Below, piece by piece: positions 17,601 to 52,748 of a DNA stretch of 64,000 nt. Under the pieces are notes generated by a model that was not told the DNA's origin, searched no databases, and saw nothing but the letters and a program-made list of their open reading frames with translations. Source of the stretch: a virus (taxonomy: Duplodnaviria; Caudoviricetes); IMG/VR virus record IMGVR_UViG_3300005611_001698, positions 130,409 through 194,408 of that record; one strand, 5' to 3'. A program made the translations under genes and the position numbers. Within the stretch, counting starts at the first letter, position 1, and each line of letters opens with the position of its first letter.

Positions 17601-17931
17601 ATGTATTTGTTTTTCCAGTATATGAAATAATCTCATTATTGATCTTTAAAAGTCCATATTGATCTGGCCAACCAGAAGTATCGCCAACATTAATTGTCGT
17701 ATCACTAAAACTGACGTTAGAAGTTGCAGTTGTAGACCCAATGATTGAGGTGTAAGTTCCTACCTTAACATATTGATCAATGTTTTCCAGAATATTTACT
17801 GGACCACCTTGATACTCTTGTGACTTATAATATGTTTTAAGAAAATCCCCTGCTCCCTGAAGTTCAGAACCAAGAAAAATAGGAAGTTGATTTTCAACAA
17901 CCGACTGGATTTTAACTCTTTTTTCTAACAT
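5662..17931 (-). CDS. gp7: Giant baseplate wedge initiator gp7 (4089 aa)
   Basis: N-terminal NQLP..FLKTYY, FYKSKGT..SFEILFRALY; many GxGY..P repeats; DLDEHNGRF motif; located between gp6 and gp8. Confidence 0.8.
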   Translation of the reverse strand: MLEKRVKIQSVVENQLPIFLGSELQGAGDFLKTYYKSQEYQGGPVNILENIDQYVKVGTYTSIIGSTTATSNVSFSDTTINVGDTSGWPDQYGLLKINNEIISYTGKTNTSFTGCIRGFSGITSYHSNNGPDELIFEDTNASEHFEDDQVLNLSSLFLKEFFKKIKAQFLPGLEEVDLYKGLRPSNFIKQAVDFYKSKGTPDSFEILFRALYNDEVEVLKPQDNLFIPSDASYRRVIRLCAEPLPGQVDISQQYLSGLIARTLYQRDGNGNITSYGSIVDIERIFREDKTFYLIDIDFVENKDTNTFGSVYGDFKIDKQTKIVGNIGSGSTFFDVESTIGFPKTGELLVRYQSGESGIVTYSSKNTTQFLDIDGVTDIIIDQQEVFENTSSYVVLDDDTEYEFKIKGSLGRYKIKATDIDTPYFTPGDVIKNQSLGYAKSNKVMDSLIHNETCRFKIKTSRILNQNQLGQNPNIISLYQIESFEPHGFQIGDSIQVITTRGLETSGVVNNIISDFIFDVSGLSGFDPQLGGDVRRLIRKVSSQNDGVNYLPSNVIKSFYDENDSVYFASHSLPSYQNPINVKSENIVLTDNGNSATSPYIVSGDTINYPDHGLYTGDEVYYQPDKFVELLTGYGEPVAITTVRNLGDLIEGRYFVKRVDPSNFKLSESKADIFNNAFVNVSGIASNQVIYPINSYEYQLDSSYGVRKIPVFIETPENKVKTNPGNVGVFINGVDILSYKSNDYCYYGNLTGVKVLSGGSNYDIINPPNIIISDSVGTGATATASVRGSLDSIEVIDSGYDFISEPIITISGGNGKGAKAKANLRSENTVVFTDVSAGASYISTSTNVIGFSTYHRLRDGDGVVYNSNSQTPIGIGSTVGSQIRDAYLSNNSIYYVNAKSLTEITLHRDQKSALAGVGTINITTFGSGNQYFTSVKKKNILSSISVESGGSGYSNNQIRVSSSGINTSKDQINFIDHGFSTGEIIKYQYEGSQISGLTTDQNYLVTKVDDGSFKLSSAGIGTTASYYNFDNKIFVDLQSVGTGGTHIFNYPQIAVNISGNIGIGTTNNIAFQSTVKPNFRGSIYKINLEKGGIGYGCSDILNFERQSLITFENGSSAQLKPIIQGGRISEVFVLNGGYGYNSSPTLKISGSGKDASLTPVITNGSITSVKVNNGGSGFTTSTTFVEVIPTGIGAKARVSIRRWNVNEFEKKRRKLSVDDGILSRSTNQYSKGSYSSLSAPRALREIIYSRNESGNPNYGVDTFDLIKQNGLEVDSKNHSPIIGWSFDGHPIYGPYGYNNIEGGPIKAMESGYELNPSPDRPPGFSNGFFVEDYSFTDNGDLDEHNGRFTKTPDYPDGVYAYFTTVNPGQVDSDGSFKNYKRPQFPYVIGDTFKSKPDTFNYNRQINQIDYEYSTLIRNTKPSKTSDVYGFNEYINSSLKDERQISVIESTRRGEITDFDIVSAGTSYKSGDIVYLDGQPKYGRQSRISVGRIRGKEIVSIASSTITSENAELFVGGGLAIGYCTSPHNFENKNRVVVSGLSTQSYANLNGTKNIFNPQRIWTLEQYLDTPANTGLTTNIALSGPYDPLYVRENTIIGIGVSAENLEQLKVLNVDPLNSVMRVQRNHNGTVGTAYSAGTIAIEFQSTFSFRVGFNTYIGNPPTFQRYFDPSEVVGLGTTAVVGVGTTISYHKINNIAPPHLQENTNYQPGTAYTSKIIPINTILIPNHSFNTGDELIYSNGGGTSIEVSDGIGTFVLSDQLTVYAIKNSTDLLGISTTKVGLGSTGSFVGLGSTAIQLSFTSVGSGVTHSFKKVNRPITADVNVYEATLTTEEPHGLSFQDNIRLVPLPNNTQTVFVQFNDYNRRIVFDRKKFEPSAITTSTDTINIQNHDLISGDKIVYTTGGSAPTGLTDQRMYYAIEIDSNNIKLAANKVDSLGPNPTPISIGGTGSGEHFISKINPKIEVVRGNTVSFAVTDTSLSVTSSGSTFSAFKLNFYTDPYFRNEFKTTGLSRNFEVSGIGTIGVTDPAVISLRTNSLVPNNLYYKFTPINVDIAPTSKTEILIDTEQDSANNIGVINSSYQVDEYPTGIGTTIFKFNLTEKPESTSYTSSDGEFYYTHKSENATGPIDSINIKNSNVNYENLPGITSIASTTGSNALIRLNGTMGSISRTRTKNNGYNYSFDPTLKVIANTPEILRVEELSSFESIGISSGGNGYNIAPNLVVIDTITNKKIENVILQAEVRNGSVSKVNIKENAKNLSDTNPSIITINNSNGVGINTVGFNTITKEVTLQLNVGFSTVGSFPFSVGNKIFVEGVGIASTGSGYNSVDYNYKFFEITNIDANIGGIGSVTYKLDANVSNPGTYSTVRSSGRVIPFEDFPVFNPVLKKNDFSIGEEVVITNINEQKYGKVSTWDNANKILKINCNKEILTGDDIKGLGSGTIAKVSDKINVDSLYDIEAAPPVIKGWEKDTGKPSTNEQRLIDSDYYQYFSYSLKSKIAYDTWNDIVSSMDHTIGFKKFSDLQIESRDETFKSVGISSSNIELLLDLISEVETYCRYDFDLVSETNKFISGSFFSDEILTSTIALTDYEESVGNRVLSIDNFSDEFNNTPRATRYSIIDTFPLAGTRYRKYFLMTEDTQFLGERRMQIVELLLDDGINGYIQEYAIVNGPSDLNGYFDFQALGSEGQLLFYPQKYDTNNYDIHGLVYNIDRDTHSAVGLSTLVGVTTIGDIVEISARGCQISAGSTAVNIVGFPTASFDASHKFMIQMDTNHTHEVVDLNILHNNNEVYGVEYGNIGDADLNITSSPNIGTFGSNISGGVLYINFTPSSDYVGAAVTFNILKTSFLSGVSTVGVATISLTNGDLRAQYTNVPSSGSPGITTIANFGNNTTVDEDGAYVIIHLHDVTNDRYELVEGIFLSDTDGITYQTLFGSVDDDSDNLNTGIGTIGSNSVGGKYNVVYTPPVSTNVIAKTFVTSAAHVKGGVEQINYIDIQDTRIEGIEGTYTNTQADVRRAFGLFHGGDPIFVKSFDASDSLIVDTNNDLVVLPNHFFTSGERLTYNPTGTGNTSAIGIATTTISGYGSTDKLPDYVYAIKIDDKSIRLAATPEDALASASGNYLDLTTVGIGTSHTFTAQDQNTKCIIALDNNIQDPVIPGNIEHTLIEDMSFGGQFIRLSGVSSFFGGDLLKVEDEFMRVDQVGFGSTNVLLVKRAWMGTGLSTHPSGTLVEKYEGSYNIVDNTINFYTAPNGIQPPEDATDPDEIDWTGIQTSSTFQGRTFLRNGVVGSSTHTYATNYLFDSISPQLTGVGKTFAIKQDEANVSGFSTNHAFILINDIAQIPSQGSRINDFAFTENAGITSIVFSGFGASVSNDVNTGSVPVGGVIVSVGSTQGFGYQPLVAAGGTANISGFGTVTSISIGNSGSGYRSGIATLNGIVQELTYNVGLRTTDLDTVDVVSIGTATISNGNVVGVSITNPGTGYTFSNPPIVVFDNPTPYTRIPLIYHPDSPGTQIGTNAYVDIQVSLGSSVTNFEIINSGYGYKDGEILTIPSGGITGIPTDSTVGAGFSEFRINIDRVDSDKFTGWRFGDLDVLDKLDPFFDGETKVFTLKKEEVSVSIRAARGSLIDIEQTILVFFNNVLQEPGIAYQFSGGSNITFAEAPKVGDTCSILFYKGTGDIDVVSKDIIETIKVGDTVRITSGDDLNSFAFEQESRFVTGINTSDRFNTNLYSGVGLTTDITIQRPMIWCKQQEDLFFDGQSVTKDRILYEANIFPETHIIKPVGLGSTEIWVDNVLPFFDSYNESLEDAKQIIDIFEQGSKIAAAATAVISGFGTVLSISVTNSGLGYTATPLVSIANSVGFGSDTRATASASITGTAVTSITVTNAGAGYTFTNPPVVLISPPIFDKEEMTGVEYSGDFGVITGIATTSVGLASTGIVFDLLIPNDSPLRSSAYVGPSGIQTITNIAAGYPFVVFDSNIGNGVTSLDLGGSVLGIGTTFLDNVYEAVSVSIATTEAVGFGATYVAKVTVSVQDYNSLTGLGYSDFFGRYSWGKLRNFTRAGVAKSFTPELNDGFTGISTGPVVLRKTPLKSVGYLT

Positions 17932-19829
17932 TATCGCGTAATTTTATTATTGGAGAAACTGGAAGAAACAGTGTATCTCGATCCAGATACGTCAGCGCCA
18001 GAGGATATGGTGTCTGAAATGACACTTATGTTACTCTTACTTATATCTAGTTGCAAAAATAAATCCTGTAATCCGATAACATCATTTGAATATGGAACTG
18101 CCTGAACCTCAATGATTGGGAAATCAGATTCAAATTTTGATGTACCAATGATCTTAATTGGATTTAAAAGTATCTCTCCTCGCTCATAATCAACTGTTCC
18201 GACATTTCTTCTTAAAACTTGCATTTCAGTTTCAGAAAGAGATCTTATAAGATTAATAACACCGGTTTTCATATTTGCATCTGGGACATCTGAAAAGAAT
18301 ACCTCTCCAGAATAACCCTCTACATAAAATCCACTAGTTTTAATATTCACACCATCACCAATGTAAAATCTATTACCAAAACAAAGTTCATAATCTGCAA
18401 AAGAGTTAATGACTGGCCTTAAATCTCTTCTCATCACAATACTTGTAATATTTGATGTGATTGAAGAATCGCAATCATCAATAACTCTTAAAAGTTTGCT
18501 ATATTTCAATCTTGCGCCATAACTATTCAGTTCAGTTGTTTTTGAATAAGTTTCAAGACACTCAGTTACCTTAGTCTTGAGTGATGATGCTGATGGAAAC
18601 TGATTTGAGTTATAATATACATTTGAAGTGAGTTCAACATAAAGATATTTCAAATCAATAATTTGAGGAACAATTCCAGCAACTGTATGTCTTTTTAATT
18701 TCGCAATAATATCAGATTTTACAAAGTTTGAAAGATATGCACCATTTTTTGGTTTGATTGCAATAAAAACTCTTCCATATTGTGGTGGATTAAGTTCTTC
18801 ACCACCAAAAGCAGATACAGATTCAGATTCTGGAAAAACTTGTTTCGTCAAAACTTCATAATCCTGAGATGTAACTGCTCTATTCTGCGATGCATACTTT
18901 AATGGAGCATATTTTCTTACAGAATCAACACTTTCAATATTACCACCACCCGTAGATGGATTAGTTAACGAAATTGCTGAAACACCAGTTGTTACAACAC
19001 GATCATCATTATCCACAAGTCTTCCTGCAAATGAAAAGTTTCTGACACCATTTGCATCTGGACCATTTGTGATAATATAAGTTGCTGTAACGACATTTCC
19101 GTTTTCTAAACGATTACCAAAAACTCCATCTCCAAAAAGAAGTTCATATTTTTCATCTGCTGCTTCTTGTAACAGATAGATTTTTGAAGTTCCTGTTACA
19201 TCAATGATACTTTGAGCTAATTCATACTTAACTGAGGAAAGATCAAACTCACTCTCTTTAACTTGAACAACTAATGTTGAAGTATCAGTATTTGCATTTG
19301 GAATGACAAATCTTTGATCAATATTTGACGTATCTACTGTAAATGTCTTTGATAAAAATGTTCCTTCATAAATCTCAATATCATTAAAGAATGCTGCGTC
19401 ATTTACAACAGGAACAGTGATATTTTCTGGGATGCAGAAAGTATAGTTAGATCCTCCAAAACTGTCTGAGACCGCCACCAGACCCGCTCTAAGGGTCATT
19501 GTCGTTGGGTTAGTAGTCAGAGTACTGGTGTCAACAAAAAAACTTACCGTTGCCTTTGATGCTTTTTTAGATGATGGTAAATATCCAATATTTCGTGCAA
19601 GAGATACCACATTCTCTCTTAATGTGGCACTATCAATAAACACTTCATTTGCCACCATGTTGGCATTGTATGAAGTGATATATGTGTTATATGCTAAGAT
19701 ATCAATCAGAACTGATAGGTTTGATCCTTCAAAATCAAAATCCGTGAAATTAGAATTTGAACGTAGATAATCTTTTATCTGCGTCTTAATTTGATCAAAA
19801 TCTAAATTGGAGAACTTTGTAAGTGGCAT
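17931..19829 (-). CDS. gp6: Baseplate wedge subunit gp6
   Basis: LDFDQIK..FTDFDFEGSNLSVLIDILAYNT..LRENVVSLARNIGY, FGDGVFG, QNRAVT..DYE. Confidence 0.93.
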   Translation of the reverse strand: MPLTKFSNLDFDQIKTQIKDYLRSNSNFTDFDFEGSNLSVLIDILAYNTYITSYNANMVANEVFIDSATLRENVVSLARNIGYLPSSKKASKATVSFFVDTSTLTTNPTTMTLRAGLVAVSDSFGGSNYTFCIPENITVPVVNDAAFFNDIEIYEGTFLSKTFTVDTSNIDQRFVIPNANTDTSTLVVQVKESEFDLSSVKYELAQSIIDVTGTSKIYLLQEAADEKYELLFGDGVFGNRLENGNVVTATYIITNGPDANGVRNFSFAGRLVDNDDRVVTTGVSAISLTNPSTGGGNIESVDSVRKYAPLKYASQNRAVTSQDYEVLTKQVFPESESVSAFGGEELNPPQYGRVFIAIKPKNGAYLSNFVKSDIIAKLKRHTVAGIVPQIIDLKYLYVELTSNVYYNSNQFPSASSLKTKVTECLETYSKTTELNSYGARLKYSKLLRVIDDCDSSITSNITSIVMRRDLRPVINSFADYELCFGNRFYIGDGVNIKTSGFYVEGYSGEVFFSDVPDANMKTGVINLIRSLSETEMQVLRRNVGTVDYERGEILLNPIKIIGTSKFESDFPIIEVQAVPYSNDVIGLQDLFLQLDISKSNISVISDTISSGADVSGSRYTVSSSFSNNKITR

Positions 19830-20227
19830 TATCTTGTTGATTGAAGAACAAACTCTAATACTTTGGGAGTTCTAGGTTGACCAACAATAAAATACGAAAT
19901 TAAGACGTTATATCCATTATTATCATACTCAGGGGTTACTTCAACTGTATTAATTTCAACTCTTGGTTCAAAATTTTTAATCGTAAGTTCAATATCTTTT
20001 CTGATAATGGTTGCAGTACCAAAATCAAGCAATTCAAAGAGGCTTCTTGATACCCTAGAACCCAAATTTGGTTGAAATGGCCTCTCTCCTAATGATGTTA
20101 ATACTAAATTTCGTATAGAACGCGAAATTGCAGTCTCATTGGACAGCGTGATCACATCATTTGTGATCGGATGCTTCTGAAAAGACAAAGAAATGTCTTT
20201 AAATGCCCGTGAGATCGGCTGCGGCAC
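19829..20227 (-). CDS. gp25: Baseplate wedge subunit gp25 (GPW/gp25 family)
   Basis: FKDISLSF, GERPFQPNLGS, FEPRV; GTG start. Confidence 0.92.
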   Translation of the reverse strand: MPQPISRAFKDISLSFQKHPITNDVITLSNETAISRSIRNLVLTSLGERPFQPNLGSRVSRSLFELLDFGTATIIRKDIELTIKNFEPRVEINTVEVTPEYDNNGYNVLISYFIVGQPRTPKVLEFVLQSTR

Positions 20228-20251
20228 TAGTTATGACTAAAACTTCTGTGT

Positions 20252-20259
20252 TATTTAGA
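20252..20259 (-). promoter_or_regulatory. Late promoter variant (TCTAAATA) upstream of gp25
   Basis: CTAAATA box 25 nt upstream of the gp25 start. Confidence 0.5.
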
Positions 20260-20319
20260 CAGAATTCTGAAGGAATACCGTATGGACTGTAACCATGACT
20301 AAAATGTGAAGGTCCACAT

Positions 20320-20997
20320 TCAAAAATCGGTGCTTCTAATGCCAGAATTTCCTCTTTCGTTGCCAGTTTCCCAAAAATATTCGTCGGTATCGCCCAATCT
20401 ACCCCATCTGACTCCATTTTCAACCTGATAATACCGTGTAGAGACCTTGAAATCGGGCGTAAGAGGCGTTTCGGGAGTGAGTGATAAGTCATAAATTCTC
20501 ATTCTATTGTTTGGATACAGTGCAAATTGCCCATTTTCAAGTTCAATACAGTTATGTGACTTGTGTTCATCGGGAATTTCACTGACATTACAGTTTGTTG
20601 TATCAATATCAGGGTGAAAGTTATCCAAAGTGAACAAATATTCGCCTTTGATATTACCAAAGTTACGTGTTCGAAGTTCAAAATCCATTGATCCAATGAA
20701 TTGTTTCTTAATACATCGAACTCCATAGTCCATACAGTTCCAAAATTGTAGATTTGGTAAATCTAAATCAGGATCTGGTGTCTCTGGACGCGAGAGAAAC
20801 GCGCTAATGGGTAGTTTATCATACATTGCCCCATACTTAGGCAAATAAGTCTCAAAATAAAAAGCACGTCCAGGTATGGACTTTGCCGATACCCAGACGC
20901 CCTCTACAAATTCCCCATAGCCGTCTTGTAAATCTCTCAAATATTCTTTACGAACCCACACTTTTTGTGGTGGGAGATTGACGACTAATTGACTCAT
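20320..20997 (-). CDS. Conserved cyanophage hypothetical protein
   Basis: 225-aa ORF (NLPP..VWVRKEYL, YDKLPISAF, EHKSHN, YPNNR) recognisable as a cyanomyophage family found next to gp25. Confidence 0.7.
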   Translation of the reverse strand: MSQLVVNLPPQKVWVRKEYLRDLQDGYGEFVEGVWVSAKSIPGRAFYFETYLPKYGAMYDKLPISAFLSRPETPDPDLDLPNLQFWNCMDYGVRCIKKQFIGSMDFELRTRNFGNIKGEYLFTLDNFHPDIDTTNCNVSEIPDEHKSHNCIELENGQFALYPNNRMRIYDLSLTPETPLTPDFKVSTRYYQVENGVRWGRLGDTDEYFWETGNERGNSGIRSTDF

Positions 20998-22496: not shown

Positions 22497-22682
22497 AAGT
22501 CCAACCTATGAGGCATTTTTATATACCTCAGAATTTTTTTGAGACTTCGATATTTATCTCGCTTTTTGGGTTCGTTGTAGGTTAGGGTAGTTTGCTTTTT
22601 TATATACGCCCCATCGCCGCCGCGAACGCATCAACGCCCGCCGCAATAACTGCCAATAAGTCACAGCAACTGTCCTGCACCT
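22497..22682 (-). ncRNA. Candidate non-coding transcript or structured leader
   Basis: ORF-free ~185 nt directly downstream of a strong promoter; GC-rich hairpin, then an A/C-rich tract, then a TGAGG..CCTCA hairpin. Confidence 0.35.
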
Positions 22683-22712
22683 ATTCTATCATAACCACTG
22701 TCAAACTGTCAA
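22683..22712 (-). promoter_or_regulatory. sigma70-type promoter TTGACA-N18-TAGAAT
   Basis: Consensus -35 (a second TTGACA at 22699-22704) and near-consensus -10. Confidence 0.7.
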
Positions 22713-22716
22713 GTGT

Positions 22717-22905
22717 TTAGTGATACGCTGCTTCCCAGAGGTTCTCTACACTTTCTGACATATCTTCCACAGTGACTGTCAAGTTCTCCCCACCTTGAAT
22801 ATCAAAGACCTTGTGAAAATCAATCTGATGAACATCAAAATCCTCAAAGACTTCAAAGTCTAATGTAACACGAATCTGCTGTTTTTGTGCGTGACTGGTG
22901 TGCAT
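22717..22905 (-). CDS. Small hypothetical protein
   Basis: 62-aa ORF directly downstream of the promoter at 22931-22960. Confidence 0.6.
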   Translation of the reverse strand: MHTSHAQKQQIRVTLDFEVFEDFDVHQIDFHKVFDIQGGENLTVTVEDMSESVENLWEAAYH

Positions 22906-22930
22906 CAGTTCAGGAGTGATTGACCTTAGT

Positions 22931-22960
22931 ATTATATAACAACCCTCTAAGGATTGTCAA
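22931..22960 (-). promoter_or_regulatory. Consensus sigma70 promoter TTGACA-N18-TATAAT
   Basis: Exact consensus hexamers. Confidence 0.8.
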
Positions 22961-22999
22961 GGTTTTGTGTGGGTCTGATGATGAGAATCGGGGTGGGGG

Positions 23000-23028
23000 T
23001 TGACAGAATCGTCGTGTTATGTTATGCT
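23000..23028 (+). promoter_or_regulatory. Plus-strand sigma70 promoter TTGACA-N17-TATGCT with extended -10 (TGn)
   Basis: Divergent from the 22931-22960 promoter; points into the repeat/DnaA-box array with no credible ORF downstream. Confidence 0.65.
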
Positions 23029-23066
23029 CGCTTAGATCACAAGACCTGGACACATTTCCAGAAGAA

Positions 23067-23152
23067 TAACAACAGTTTTCCACAAGTATTAGAGGGACAT
23101 TAACAACAGTTTTCCACAAGTATTAGAGGGACATTAACAACAGTTTTCCACA
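23067..23152. repeat. 34-bp tandem repeat x2.5 (TAACAACAGTTTTCCACAAGTATTAGAGGGACAT)
   Basis: Exact copies at 23067-23100 and 23101-23134, partial copy at 23135-23152. Confidence 0.95.
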
Positions 23153-23282
23153 GGATTAAACACTGCAAAGTAACTGCTTAGATACCACAAATACACTGCA
23201 AAGTAACTCTTTCTGTGGAATTGTGGAAAACTCTTTAACAAACTCAAATACATTTTTTAATACGTTTTTAATACATTTTTAA
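23067..23282. other. Candidate replication origin or DnaA-box cluster
   Basis: TTTTCCACA at 23076, 23110, 23144 (+) and 23222-23230 (-); 16-bp direct repeat ACACTGCAAAGTAACT at 23160 and 23193; AT-rich AATACRTTTTT x3 at 23247-23280. Confidence 0.5.
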
Positions 23283-23283
23283 C

Positions 23284-23493
23284 TCAAAACATGCTATTTA
23301 TTGATGTTTTTGGGGTGTAATCTACGTCATTCCAATGTCTCACAGCATTAGCAACAATTGCTACATTAGTGATAAGATAGGTAGCAAAGATAACCGTTCT
23401 GATGATTGCTACTGTATCTGCTTCCTTATCATCTTTCCCTTGTTTTTCACCCAGAGCTTTACACCATAATCTCCATACAGTTTTAATCATCAT
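23284..23493 (-). CDS. Small membrane protein, conserved cyanophage hypothetical
   Basis: WRLWCKALGEK..AIIRT..hydrophobic segment..RHW. Confidence 0.6.
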   Translation of the reverse strand: MMIKTVWRLWCKALGEKQGKDDKEADTVAIIRTVIFATYLITNVAIVANAVRHWNDVDYTPKTSINSMF

Positions 23494-51019: not shown

Positions 51020-52748
51020 ATAACTGTCGAACATTCTCCCAGACACCCTCATCATTTACTTGTACTTGAATCGGGAAATTGGCTTTAATTTCCACATCAA
51101 TATCAATATCATCGACTAATAATTTTTCACTTAAAACATCAGTCTCTGGTGTTATAACAGGTTCCTGATTTGCTATCAAATCATCGCTATCTGGGGGATT
51201 TAAATTTTCTGGTGTATCATCGATATTAATAACGACAACATCTGAAGAATTTACTGTACCTCCATTACCAGTTCCTTCAATGGTGTAACCAACAGTGAGT
51301 GGTCCCCTATTTGTATAGGGTATTGTAGTAGTATAAGTGGAAGTAACCTCAGTTGTTCCAACATTCTGTTCTGCTGAATTTGGACGAGATAGTTGTACAG
51401 GATCTCCAACAACTGTAACTCCTTCGAGATAATAATAAGTTGGTGTTAAAGTTAACGAAGTATTTGTATAAGTAGCCGTATATTCAATTGTTCCTTGTGT
51501 TCCATAATCTAAAGAAGTAGGATAATCAACACTTAAAATTGGTAATTGATAAACAGTTACCGTTATTGATGCTACAGGACTAGTACCACCCAATCCAGAA
51601 ACTCTACCAGAATATGTTGTTGACACGGTTGGTGTTAAAACTACAGAACTATTCAAATTTGTATTAGTAATTCCACCCGTTATCCAAGTAATCGTATTAG
51701 CATCACCAGTAGTATTCCAACTCAATGTAACTGATTGTCCGACAACAATTGAAGTTCTAGATAAAGTAAGATATAAAACAGGAGGAATATAAACAGTTAC
51801 CGTTAATTGTGCATCAACCGCAGTTACACCATCCAATCCAACAACGGACAAAATATATGTTGTATCATCAGCAGGAGATACTGTTAGACTACCATTTGGC
51901 ATGGTAACACTAACATTTCCAGGATTTATTACTCCTGTTGTAGTAAATGAAGTTGTCCAAGACAATGTTGTTGTATCACCAGAAATAATTGGATTTGGAG
52001 AAACAGTGAAACTATTAATTACTGGATTTGCCAAATCATATTGTACTGTAACGTAACCATTTCCAGATATCGTATCACTGTTTGTGTAACTTATGTAACT
52101 AGAATTATACCAACTAGAACCACCACTGCCACCACCAGAAGGATAACGTCCTGCGCGATCATCTGCGCCTTCTCTACCGCCGCCACCACCAGGAGATCCA
52201 GCGCCACCACCGCCACCGCCACCACCATCAAAACCTTGAGATGCTCCTGTGCCACCACCAGATAAGGATCCATTTCCACTGTTCATACCTCCAGCATTAC
52301 CACCATTCCCTCCTCTAAGAAAACCATCGGGATGAGATCCACCACCAGCTCCTCCGCCACCTCCTAAAATAGCTATACGACCACCAGCAATACTATCAGA
52401 TAGAGTAGTAGCACCGCCACCTCCACCGCCTCCACCAGAGCATCCCTGTGGTCCTGTATTACCGCCTCTACCACCAGAAGCAGCTCCAGACCCACCATTT
52501 CCTGCGCCACTTCCACTTACACAACCAAATCCATTTTGTCCTTGATTTCCAATAACCCAACTAACTGTTCTTGAGGTATAATTGGGAAATATAAATGTTG
52601 TTCGACGACCGCGACCACCAGTTCCGCCTGGGTTACTATCATTTCCACCATTCCCACCACCACCAGCAGCTGCTGTAATTCTGATATTCTGAGCATTAGA
52701 AGGAATAAACTTACTACCATTGCCACTATAAGTTTGATTGAAAGACAT
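51018..52748 (-). CDS. Ig-like-repeat virion protein, paralog C (Gly-rich head)
   Basis: Start MSFNQ via TAATG overlap; poly-Gly N-terminus, Ig-like TLSW repeats, shared C-terminus WENVRQL. Confidence 0.75.
   Translation of the reverse strand: MSFNQTYSGNGSKFIPSNAQNIRITAAAGGGGNGGNDSNPGGTGGRGRRTTFIFPNYTSRTVSWVIGNQGQNGFGCVSGSGAGNGGSGAASGGRGGNTGPQGCSGGGGGGGGATTLSDSIAGGRIAILGGGGGAGGGSHPDGFLRGGNGGNAGGMNSGNGSLSGGGTGASQGFDGGGGGGGGAGSPGGGGGREGADDRAGRYPSGGGSGGSSWYNSSYISYTNSDTISGNGYVTVQYDLANPVINSFTVSPNPIISGDTTTLSWTTSFTTTGVINPGNVSVTMPNGSLTVSPADDTTYILSVVGLDGVTAVDAQLTVTVYIPPVLYLTLSRTSIVVGQSVTLSWNTTGDANTITWITGGITNTNLNSSVVLTPTVSTTYSGRVSGLGGTSPVASITVTVYQLPILSVDYPTSLDYGTQGTIEYTATYTNTSLTLTPTYYYLEGVTVVGDPVQLSRPNSAEQNVGTTEVTSTYTTTIPYTNRGPLTVGYTIEGTGNGGTVNSSDVVVINIDDTPENLNPPDSDDLIANQEPVITPETDVLSEKLLVDDIDIDVEIKANFPIQVQVNDEGVWENVRQL

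Follow-up and report, generated by a model that had tools for sequence, protein, structure and literature searches.

A conserved promoter, DnaA-box and AT-repeat module as a candidate replication locus of T4-like cyanomyoviruses

What does a tight cluster of host-type DnaA boxes do in a gene-free gap of a T4-like cyanophage? The window (the whole stretch of DNA that was analysed, 64,000 nt) belongs to the complete 194,408-bp genome of a T4-like cyanomyovirus, whose host group is the marine cyanobacteria; a sequence-only reading had proposed that the gap holds an oriC-like module of DnaA boxes beside an AT-rich repeat. The origins of T4 are thought to be independent of host initiators, and to our knowledge none of the T4-like cyanophages has a mapped replication origin. 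A full-text literature search on cyanophage DnaA boxes and origins found no description of the module; the only origin statement found is the prediction of a single theta origin in Syn9, given without a location (PMC2984593). The module is considered here as the best candidate locus for the start or the timing of DNA copying in these viruses.

Layout of the module and its neighbours

The minus strand carries all real genes of the 194,408-bp genome. The module is a 378-bp gap (22906-23283) between a 69-aa gene and a 62-aa gene; gp25 follows ~2.7 kb downstream, after six small or auxiliary genes. The features, in window coordinates, are:

17931-19829, minus strand: gp6 (Pfam and PHROGs)
19829-20227, minus strand: gp25 (Pfam and PHROGs)
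22717-22905, minus strand: 62-aa acidic early gene, phrog_12516 (PHROG match 2e-17)
22931-22960, minus strand: P1, consensus early promoter TTGACA-18-TATAAT for the 62-aa gene, 12 of 12 consensus positions
23000-23028, plus strand: P2, sigma-70-type promoter TTGACA-17-TGnTATGCT, antisense to every gene in the genome
23029-23054, plus strand: initial transcribed sequence CGCTTAGATCAC, then an iteron-like unit (ACAAGACC..ACATTT)
23067-23168, plus strand: three 34-bp tandem units with one exact box each
23076-23084, 23110-23118 and 23144-23152, plus strand: exact DnaA boxes TTTTCCACA, 34 bp apart
23160-23208, plus strand: 16-bp repeat ACACTGCAAAGTAACT, two copies (23160 and 23193) 33 bp apart, between the converging boxes
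23214-23230, minus strand: overlapping double box, degenerate AATTCCACA plus exact TTTTCCACA
23214-23222: degenerate box TGTGGAATT, part of the double box
23222-23230, minus strand: exact box TTTTCCACA
23247-23280: AT-rich element, three phased 11-12-bp units (AATACRTTTTT; A5-6 tracts)
23284-23493, minus strand: 69-aa gene, phrog_1679, the variable upstream neighbour, outside the module

The four exact 9-mers, the degenerate inverted copy, the 16-bp direct repeat and the three AATACRTTTTT units reported by the sequence-only reading are all present in these places; that reading recognized the boxes and the AT repeat and overlooked P2 with its conserved transcript start. P1 and P2 lie back to back on the gene-proximal side of the gap, and P2 points into the boxes and then into the AT-rich repeats, with no ORF before the first ATG at 23293. 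The P2 transcript is predicted to start near 23035, and the first box begins 41 nt past this position; promoter-like sites on the plus strand generally occur at chance level. The description of the segment as ORF-free holds in substance, apart from two mechanical ORFs (22910-23119 on the minus strand and 22954-23103 on the plus strand) that match no PHROG family and lie in a stretch replaced or changed in length in relatives. A tRNA scan found none.

Within the window TTTTCCACA occurs 6 times, against 1.31 ± 1.08 in shuffles, and none of 100 shuffles reached 6 copies; genome-wide there are 8 copies in 194,408 bp, half of them (4/8) within 155 bp, with no second cluster. The 155 bp hold four exact boxes and one degenerate box, a cluster of the type expected of a bacterial oriC. 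The earlier caveat that three of the boxes stem from a single tandem duplication is correct, as 34-bp units 1 and 2 are 100% identical and unit 3 is 68% identical; some boxes of relatives are not derived from this duplication. Neither three phased A5 tracts nor TTAAAAA-N4-6-TTAAAAA occur anywhere in the 194 kb except at the AT-rich element. The duplex there is of low stability (z = +2.8), with 35 regions of the genome less stable still.

The module travels with the 62-aa gene and not with the 69-aa gene, since homologues of the former keep the architecture and those of the latter mostly do not. Homologues of the 62-aa gene in IMG/VR have the same upstream architecture down to 50% identity, and they adjoin the module downstream at every examined locus with a readable downstream ORF; the box cluster is absent at nearly all of 80 loci with homologues of the 69-aa gene, and upstream of other modules this gene is replaced by different genes or a terminator. 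The AF2 model of the 62-aa protein (pLDDT 77) has no recognisable or regular fold, and apart from phrog_12516 the protein shows no DNA-binding features and no fold or family match. A further strong promoter (TTGACA-18-TAGAAT, 22712-22683, minus strand) directly follows the 62-aa gene. The minus-strand interval 22497-22716, with ~180 nt past this promoter, contains a G+C-rich island and as its sole ORF a 37-aa basic one with a GTG start (22560-22673 including the stop codon), which matches no PHROG family.

The module in related viruses

A 20-nt pattern from the P2 start region was used as search anchor; 45 IMG/VR loci gave 40 non-redundant modules, and at least 40 distinct cyanomyovirus contigs carry the module. 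It is single-copy in this genome. The constant parts are P2, the transcript start CGCTWAGATCAC, the iteron-like unit, the A-tract repeats (of the TTAAAAATGTA type) and a divergent promoter of TTGACA/TATAAT type at the place of P1. In the 40 modules P2 is constant at its -35 hexamer, at the TG and at the TAnnnT positions; its spacer varies, and its -10 element occurs as TATGCT, TACGCT, TAGAAT or TAGACT. This pattern is the one expected of a functional promoter. Across the 40 modules hardly any change affects CGCTWAGATCAC, the first 12 transcribed bases, and the iteron-like unit is present 2-5 times in L110, L122, L123 and L137. Judged from these comparisons, the constant core of the module is P2 with the conserved transcript start, not the boxes. 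The P2 core profile also has a second, weaker match in this genome (43627-43681, minus strand, E = 2e-4), which consists of TTGACA-17-TATGGT followed by TGCTAAGATGCC and lies on the gene strand at the end of a 295-aa gene.

At least one exact box is found in 29 of the 40 modules and at least two consensus boxes in 27 of them; neighbouring boxes in the same sense are mostly 20-21 bp apart (~two helical turns), sometimes 12 or 34 bp. The other 11 modules are box-less and carry AT-rich palindromes or other repeats instead, which makes the boxes an optional add-on to the module. In the box-less L098, L100, L126 and L131 (also L103 and L108) palindromes lie between the AT repeats and P2, the types being GATAA-N6-TTATC, GATACGAATTCGTATC and TTGAGAATCAAT; the exchange of boxes for palindromes may be a swap of host-factor sites. 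A reading of the palindromes as Fur boxes is only suggestive, as the best match has 5 mismatches in 19 positions and 8-9 of 300 shuffles do equally well. A motif related to ACACTGCAAAGTAACT occurs in L113, L139 and S-SCSM1.

Among isolates, the module occurs with boxes in S-SM2 and S-SCSM1 and in a box-less form in Bellamy; it is absent from S-CAM7. In S-PM2 (19231-19264) and Syn9 (52553-52597) there is one box cluster each. Beside it are a P2-like element and an AT repeat almost identical to the one described above (TTAAAAATGTATTAAAAAATATA in S-PM2), in permuted order: boxes, then AT repeat, then anchor. The co-occurrence of boxes, AT repeat and P2-like element despite this permutation favours a device that acts at the level of DNA. 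No box clusters are present in P-SSM2, P-SSM4 or P-HM2, and nhmmer with the core profile gave only a weak match in Syn9 and none in P-HM2 or P-SSM4. A blastn search of the region against 50,697 phage records returned the neighbouring gene only, the module being too short and too divergent for this method. Box enrichment at the syntenic place in relatives, on which the sequence-only reading had in part staked its proposal, was found, and the enrichment is conserved and under selection; the AT-rich repeat of the same proposal is likewise conserved in relatives and unique in the genome. Paired TGTGGAAAA is more widespread, occurring at 116 or more loci in IMG/VR contigs, many of them unrelated viral contigs. 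The cyanophage anchor or the 62-aa gene family was present in ~9 of 80 examined paired-box loci (L245-L323), and the remainder have the appearance of common DnaA-box origins that belong to other phages or to plasmids.

Selection on the boxes and the host initiator

Box density is 5.38 per kb in module segments and 0.011 per kb elsewhere in the same contigs (~490-fold). In a subfamily alignment the boxes stand out as invariant islands between spacers that diverge, and the arrays are extended in steps of 21 bp; no sequence information lies outside the 9-mer except weak flank preferences for A at -4 and -2 and for C or G at -1. By these comparative measures purifying selection acts on the boxes. 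Across modules both orientations of the box are found, and in a frequent head-to-head pair the left half varies (TTATCCACA, TTCTCCACA, TTTTCAACA) while the other side shows no change to compensate; both properties indicate a site read as double-stranded DNA rather than as an RNA hairpin. This weighs on the proposal that P2 makes a functional small RNA in which the boxes are RNA motifs. Conservation of the first ~45 nt of the transcript and a single-sequence fold of z = -2.8 speak for such an RNA; this modest fold stems from the inverted boxes, however, RNAalifold gives zero consensus pairs across 26 sequences, Rfam searches at gathering and E-value thresholds returned nothing relevant, and the transcript body is replaced wholesale between lineages. 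An RNA function for the boxes is considered highly improbable.

The 9-mers could also be bound by another phage or host protein, their agreement with the DnaA consensus being coincidental. The weak flank preferences and the further unexplained repeats of the module are compatible with such a binder; the core is nevertheless exactly the origin box of the host family, and the half-sites TTATCCACA and TTCTCCACA stay within the DnaA consensus at positions 3-4, while TTTTCAACA departs from it at position 6. The NtcA, CRP, RpaB, PhoB and LexA motifs, compared by eye, do not fit the 9-mer, and we know of no other cyanobacterial regulator motif that does. A different binding protein is thought unlikely, and the boxes are very probably genuine, selected sites for host DnaA.

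The identity of the 9-mer as a host-type DnaA box, as the sequence-only reading had it, is borne out by published and new comparisons. Synechococcus origins adjoin dnaN and use TTTTCCACA, according to the Ori-Finder authors (PMC2275245), and boxes are present in the dnaN-upstream regions of the host family. Sixteen such regions (Cyanobiaceae, L228-L243) were reached via one Cyanobium genome; a psbA-based scan for host genomes had returned mostly non-marine cyanobacteria. In most of the 16, 2-7 boxes with no more than one mismatch lie between -350 and -135, and most thrC-dnaN gaps terminate in a double box with 9-bp spacing and, after it, CTACTACTAC or one of its close variants, an arrangement that looks like a DnaA-trio element. 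DnaA is encoded in 40 of 41 host-family genomes. G014 (region L233) is the sole genome of the 41 without a match to the DnaA C-terminal domain, and its dnaN-upstream region is coding and has one box only. The phage genome encodes neither DnaA domain, as found by a domain search in which positive controls were detected.

Compared with the cyanobacterial oriC (the thrC-dnaN gap of Prochlorococcus, Synechococcus and Cyanobium), the module has the same 9-mer, likewise clustered in both orientations, and its overlapping double box (23214-23230) resembles the host terminal double box TTTTCCACAACTTCCACAG save for one base of spacing. The likeness of overall build claimed by the sequence-only reading is not upheld, as the host CTACTACTAC element is absent from 22906-23283 and from those modules of relatives that were inspected, and box order and spacing differ. 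Host clusters, which end in the DnaA-trio-like CTACTACTAC run, have 0-3 perfect boxes at irregular spacing, whereas the phage has four and phage arrays are spaced at 20-21 or 34 bp; the host origin also lacks a P2-like promoter.

The surplus of perfect boxes over the 16 host-family origins, in a phage without its own DnaA, is what would be expected of a DnaA sink, in which multiplying phage genomes titrate host DnaA and thereby keep the host chromosome from starting further rounds of replication. The E. coli locus datA is a DnaA-titration site of this kind; like the module it groups high-affinity DnaA boxes away from the chromosomal origin, and unlike the module it has no promoter or AT-repeat partner. 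A sink would leave P2, the AT repeat and the fixed position unexplained, and the boxes are optional. T4-like cyanophages degrade host DNA anyway, and a block of initiation would add little; titration is regarded as improbable.

A promoter-primed origin and a promoter hub

T4 oriF (uvsY) and oriG (gene 34) need only a promoter and an A+T-rich unwinding element, and in both the promoter reads into an ORF-free, easily unwound A+T-rich element within a few hundred bp (PMC3016281, Kreuzer and Brister 2010), a layout that the module would share. T4 oriE consists of an early promoter and iterons (PMC3016281); the combination of an early-type (host sigma-70) promoter with direct repeats is shared with the module. 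Both phages belong to the same phage family, and gp59 is present in cyanophages. A promoter reading into non-coding DNA, the mark of the T4 R-loop origins, seems to be provided by P2. Unlike the module, T4 origins are without host-initiator sites, and they share no sequence motifs; the oriF unwinding element is directly downstream of its promoter, whereas the AT-rich element is ~210 nt from the P2 start in this phage and adjacent, at ~30-55 nt, in S-PM2-type modules.

Theta-type origins of plasmids and phage-plasmids (P1 oriR, pSC101, RK2 oriV) are composed of iterons, DnaA boxes and an AT-rich region with an adjacent Rep initiator gene. The module likewise combines these three kinds of element within a few hundred bp; such origins need the adjacent Rep gene, however, and the neighbours of the module are small proteins with no Rep initiator gene among them, the only linked gene being that of the 62-aa acidic protein.

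Based on these likenesses, the module is tentatively interpreted as a T4-style origin of promoter and unwinding element at which host DnaA docks. The region 22906-23283, which is single-copy and conserved, would be a cis-acting module; host RNA polymerase would start at the antisense P2, near 23035, and transcribe ~250 nt of non-coding DNA that contains first the host-DnaA sites and then the phased A-tract AT-rich element. This would constitute an early origin of the oriF/oriG kind, with the promoter upstream of the unwinding element, in which the transcript stays annealed as an R-loop that is used by the phage gp59/gp41 machinery; a sigma-70 promoter would stand in place of the MotA-dependent promoter, which cyanophages lack. 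Host DnaA at the 4-5 boxes would be an accessory factor, which may help duplex opening or may gate or time firing. This origin reading draws on the box statistics, the uniqueness in the genome, the recovery in 40 contigs and the 490-fold box density; on the boxes as invariant double-stranded islands with ~two-turn spacing and information within the 9-mer; on the promoter-type conservation of P2 and on an AT repeat that is unique and recurs in S-PM2; on the modest requirements of T4 origins (PMC3016281) and the presence of gp59; on a phage without DnaA whose host family has DnaA and the same origin box; and on a P2 RNA without a conserved fold or an Rfam family.

Several observations argue against the origin reading. 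The AT-rich element is much further from the P2 start than in T4 oriF and is surpassed in ease of melting by the 35 regions noted above; the module lacks the host CTACTACTAC element, and boxes are absent from 11 of 40 modules; no type-A core was detected in P-HM2 or P-SSM4, and P-SSM2, P-SSM4 and P-HM2 lack box clusters; T4-type phages need no host initiator; and GC skew gives no replication sign. In this genome and in those of Syn9 and S-PM2 cumulative GC skew runs monotonically, and its detrended extremes do not fall at the module, so that it is uninformative as an origin marker.

The phage lambda region with pO (oop) and pR beside ori-lambda provides a second comparison, as it has a short antisense non-coding transcript with host DnaA boxes just downstream and lies in the replication-control region of a lytic-capable phage (PMC3985674). 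The lambda layout, in which DnaA boxes follow an antisense promoter within the stretch that it transcribes, appears to be reproduced here. Lambda differs in that it encodes an initiator of its own, O, with iterons, whereas no comparable protein is evident here; its boxes are two and degenerate as opposed to four and perfect.

This comparison can also be turned to a different account, that of a DnaA-gated promoter hub without origin function. DnaA bound downstream of P2, or other host factors in the box-less variants, would block or tune the antisense transcript, which would interfere with incoming early transcription or with P1 and couple early expression to the replication or cell-cycle state of the host. 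Host PhoB or NtcA sites in cyanophage promoters offer a parallel. The boxes are always within the P2-transcribed stretch beside the back-to-back promoters, and other repeats or palindromes can replace them at the same position; in lambda the DnaA boxes downstream of antisense pO have been footprinted, and interference between pO and pR is documented (PMC3985674). The hub leaves unexplained the conserved, genome-unique phased A-tract element and why boxes, AT repeat and promoter stay together in permuted order; moreover, many modules have a terminator just upstream, which leaves little to interfere with. A hub of this type is possible but rather doubtful.

If the T4-style origin with docked DnaA is taken as a basis, a broader hypothesis would be that cyanomyoviruses carry a transcription-primed origin gated by the host initiator, with the boxes swapped for other host-factor sites in some lineages; this generalisation is more speculative than likely. 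The module in cultured S-PM2, Syn9 and S-SM2 provides a precise, testable locus. If DnaA binds, the phage would couple its replication or its early transcription to the cell cycle of picocyanobacteria, which is tightly synchronised by light, with a bearing on the diel pattern of oceanic cyanophage infection; if a host-gated origin is true, the first round of phage replication would be plugged into the cell-cycle or physiological state of the host. It would then be the first T4-type phage origin with a cellular initiator, and the first mapped origin for cyanomyoviruses, an ecologically dominant phage group.

Some annotations across the module in isolates deserve comment. The small ORFs gp86 and gp87 of Syn9 (L365) and SSM2_085 to 087 of S-SM2 (L143) are probably spurious. 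In the S-PM2 RefSeq record several annotated tRNAs at 18506-19333 overlap CDSs and the box cluster; ARAGORN found no tRNA in 18000-20800, and the coordinates of these tRNA features look displaced. Downstream of the S-PM2 module (NC_006820.1, L366, 19430-19630) lie ~200 bp of short AT-rich direct and inverted repeats of the types AAATCTCA and TTAAGATTT, and similar arrays follow the S-PM2-type modules L244, L267, L307 and L316.
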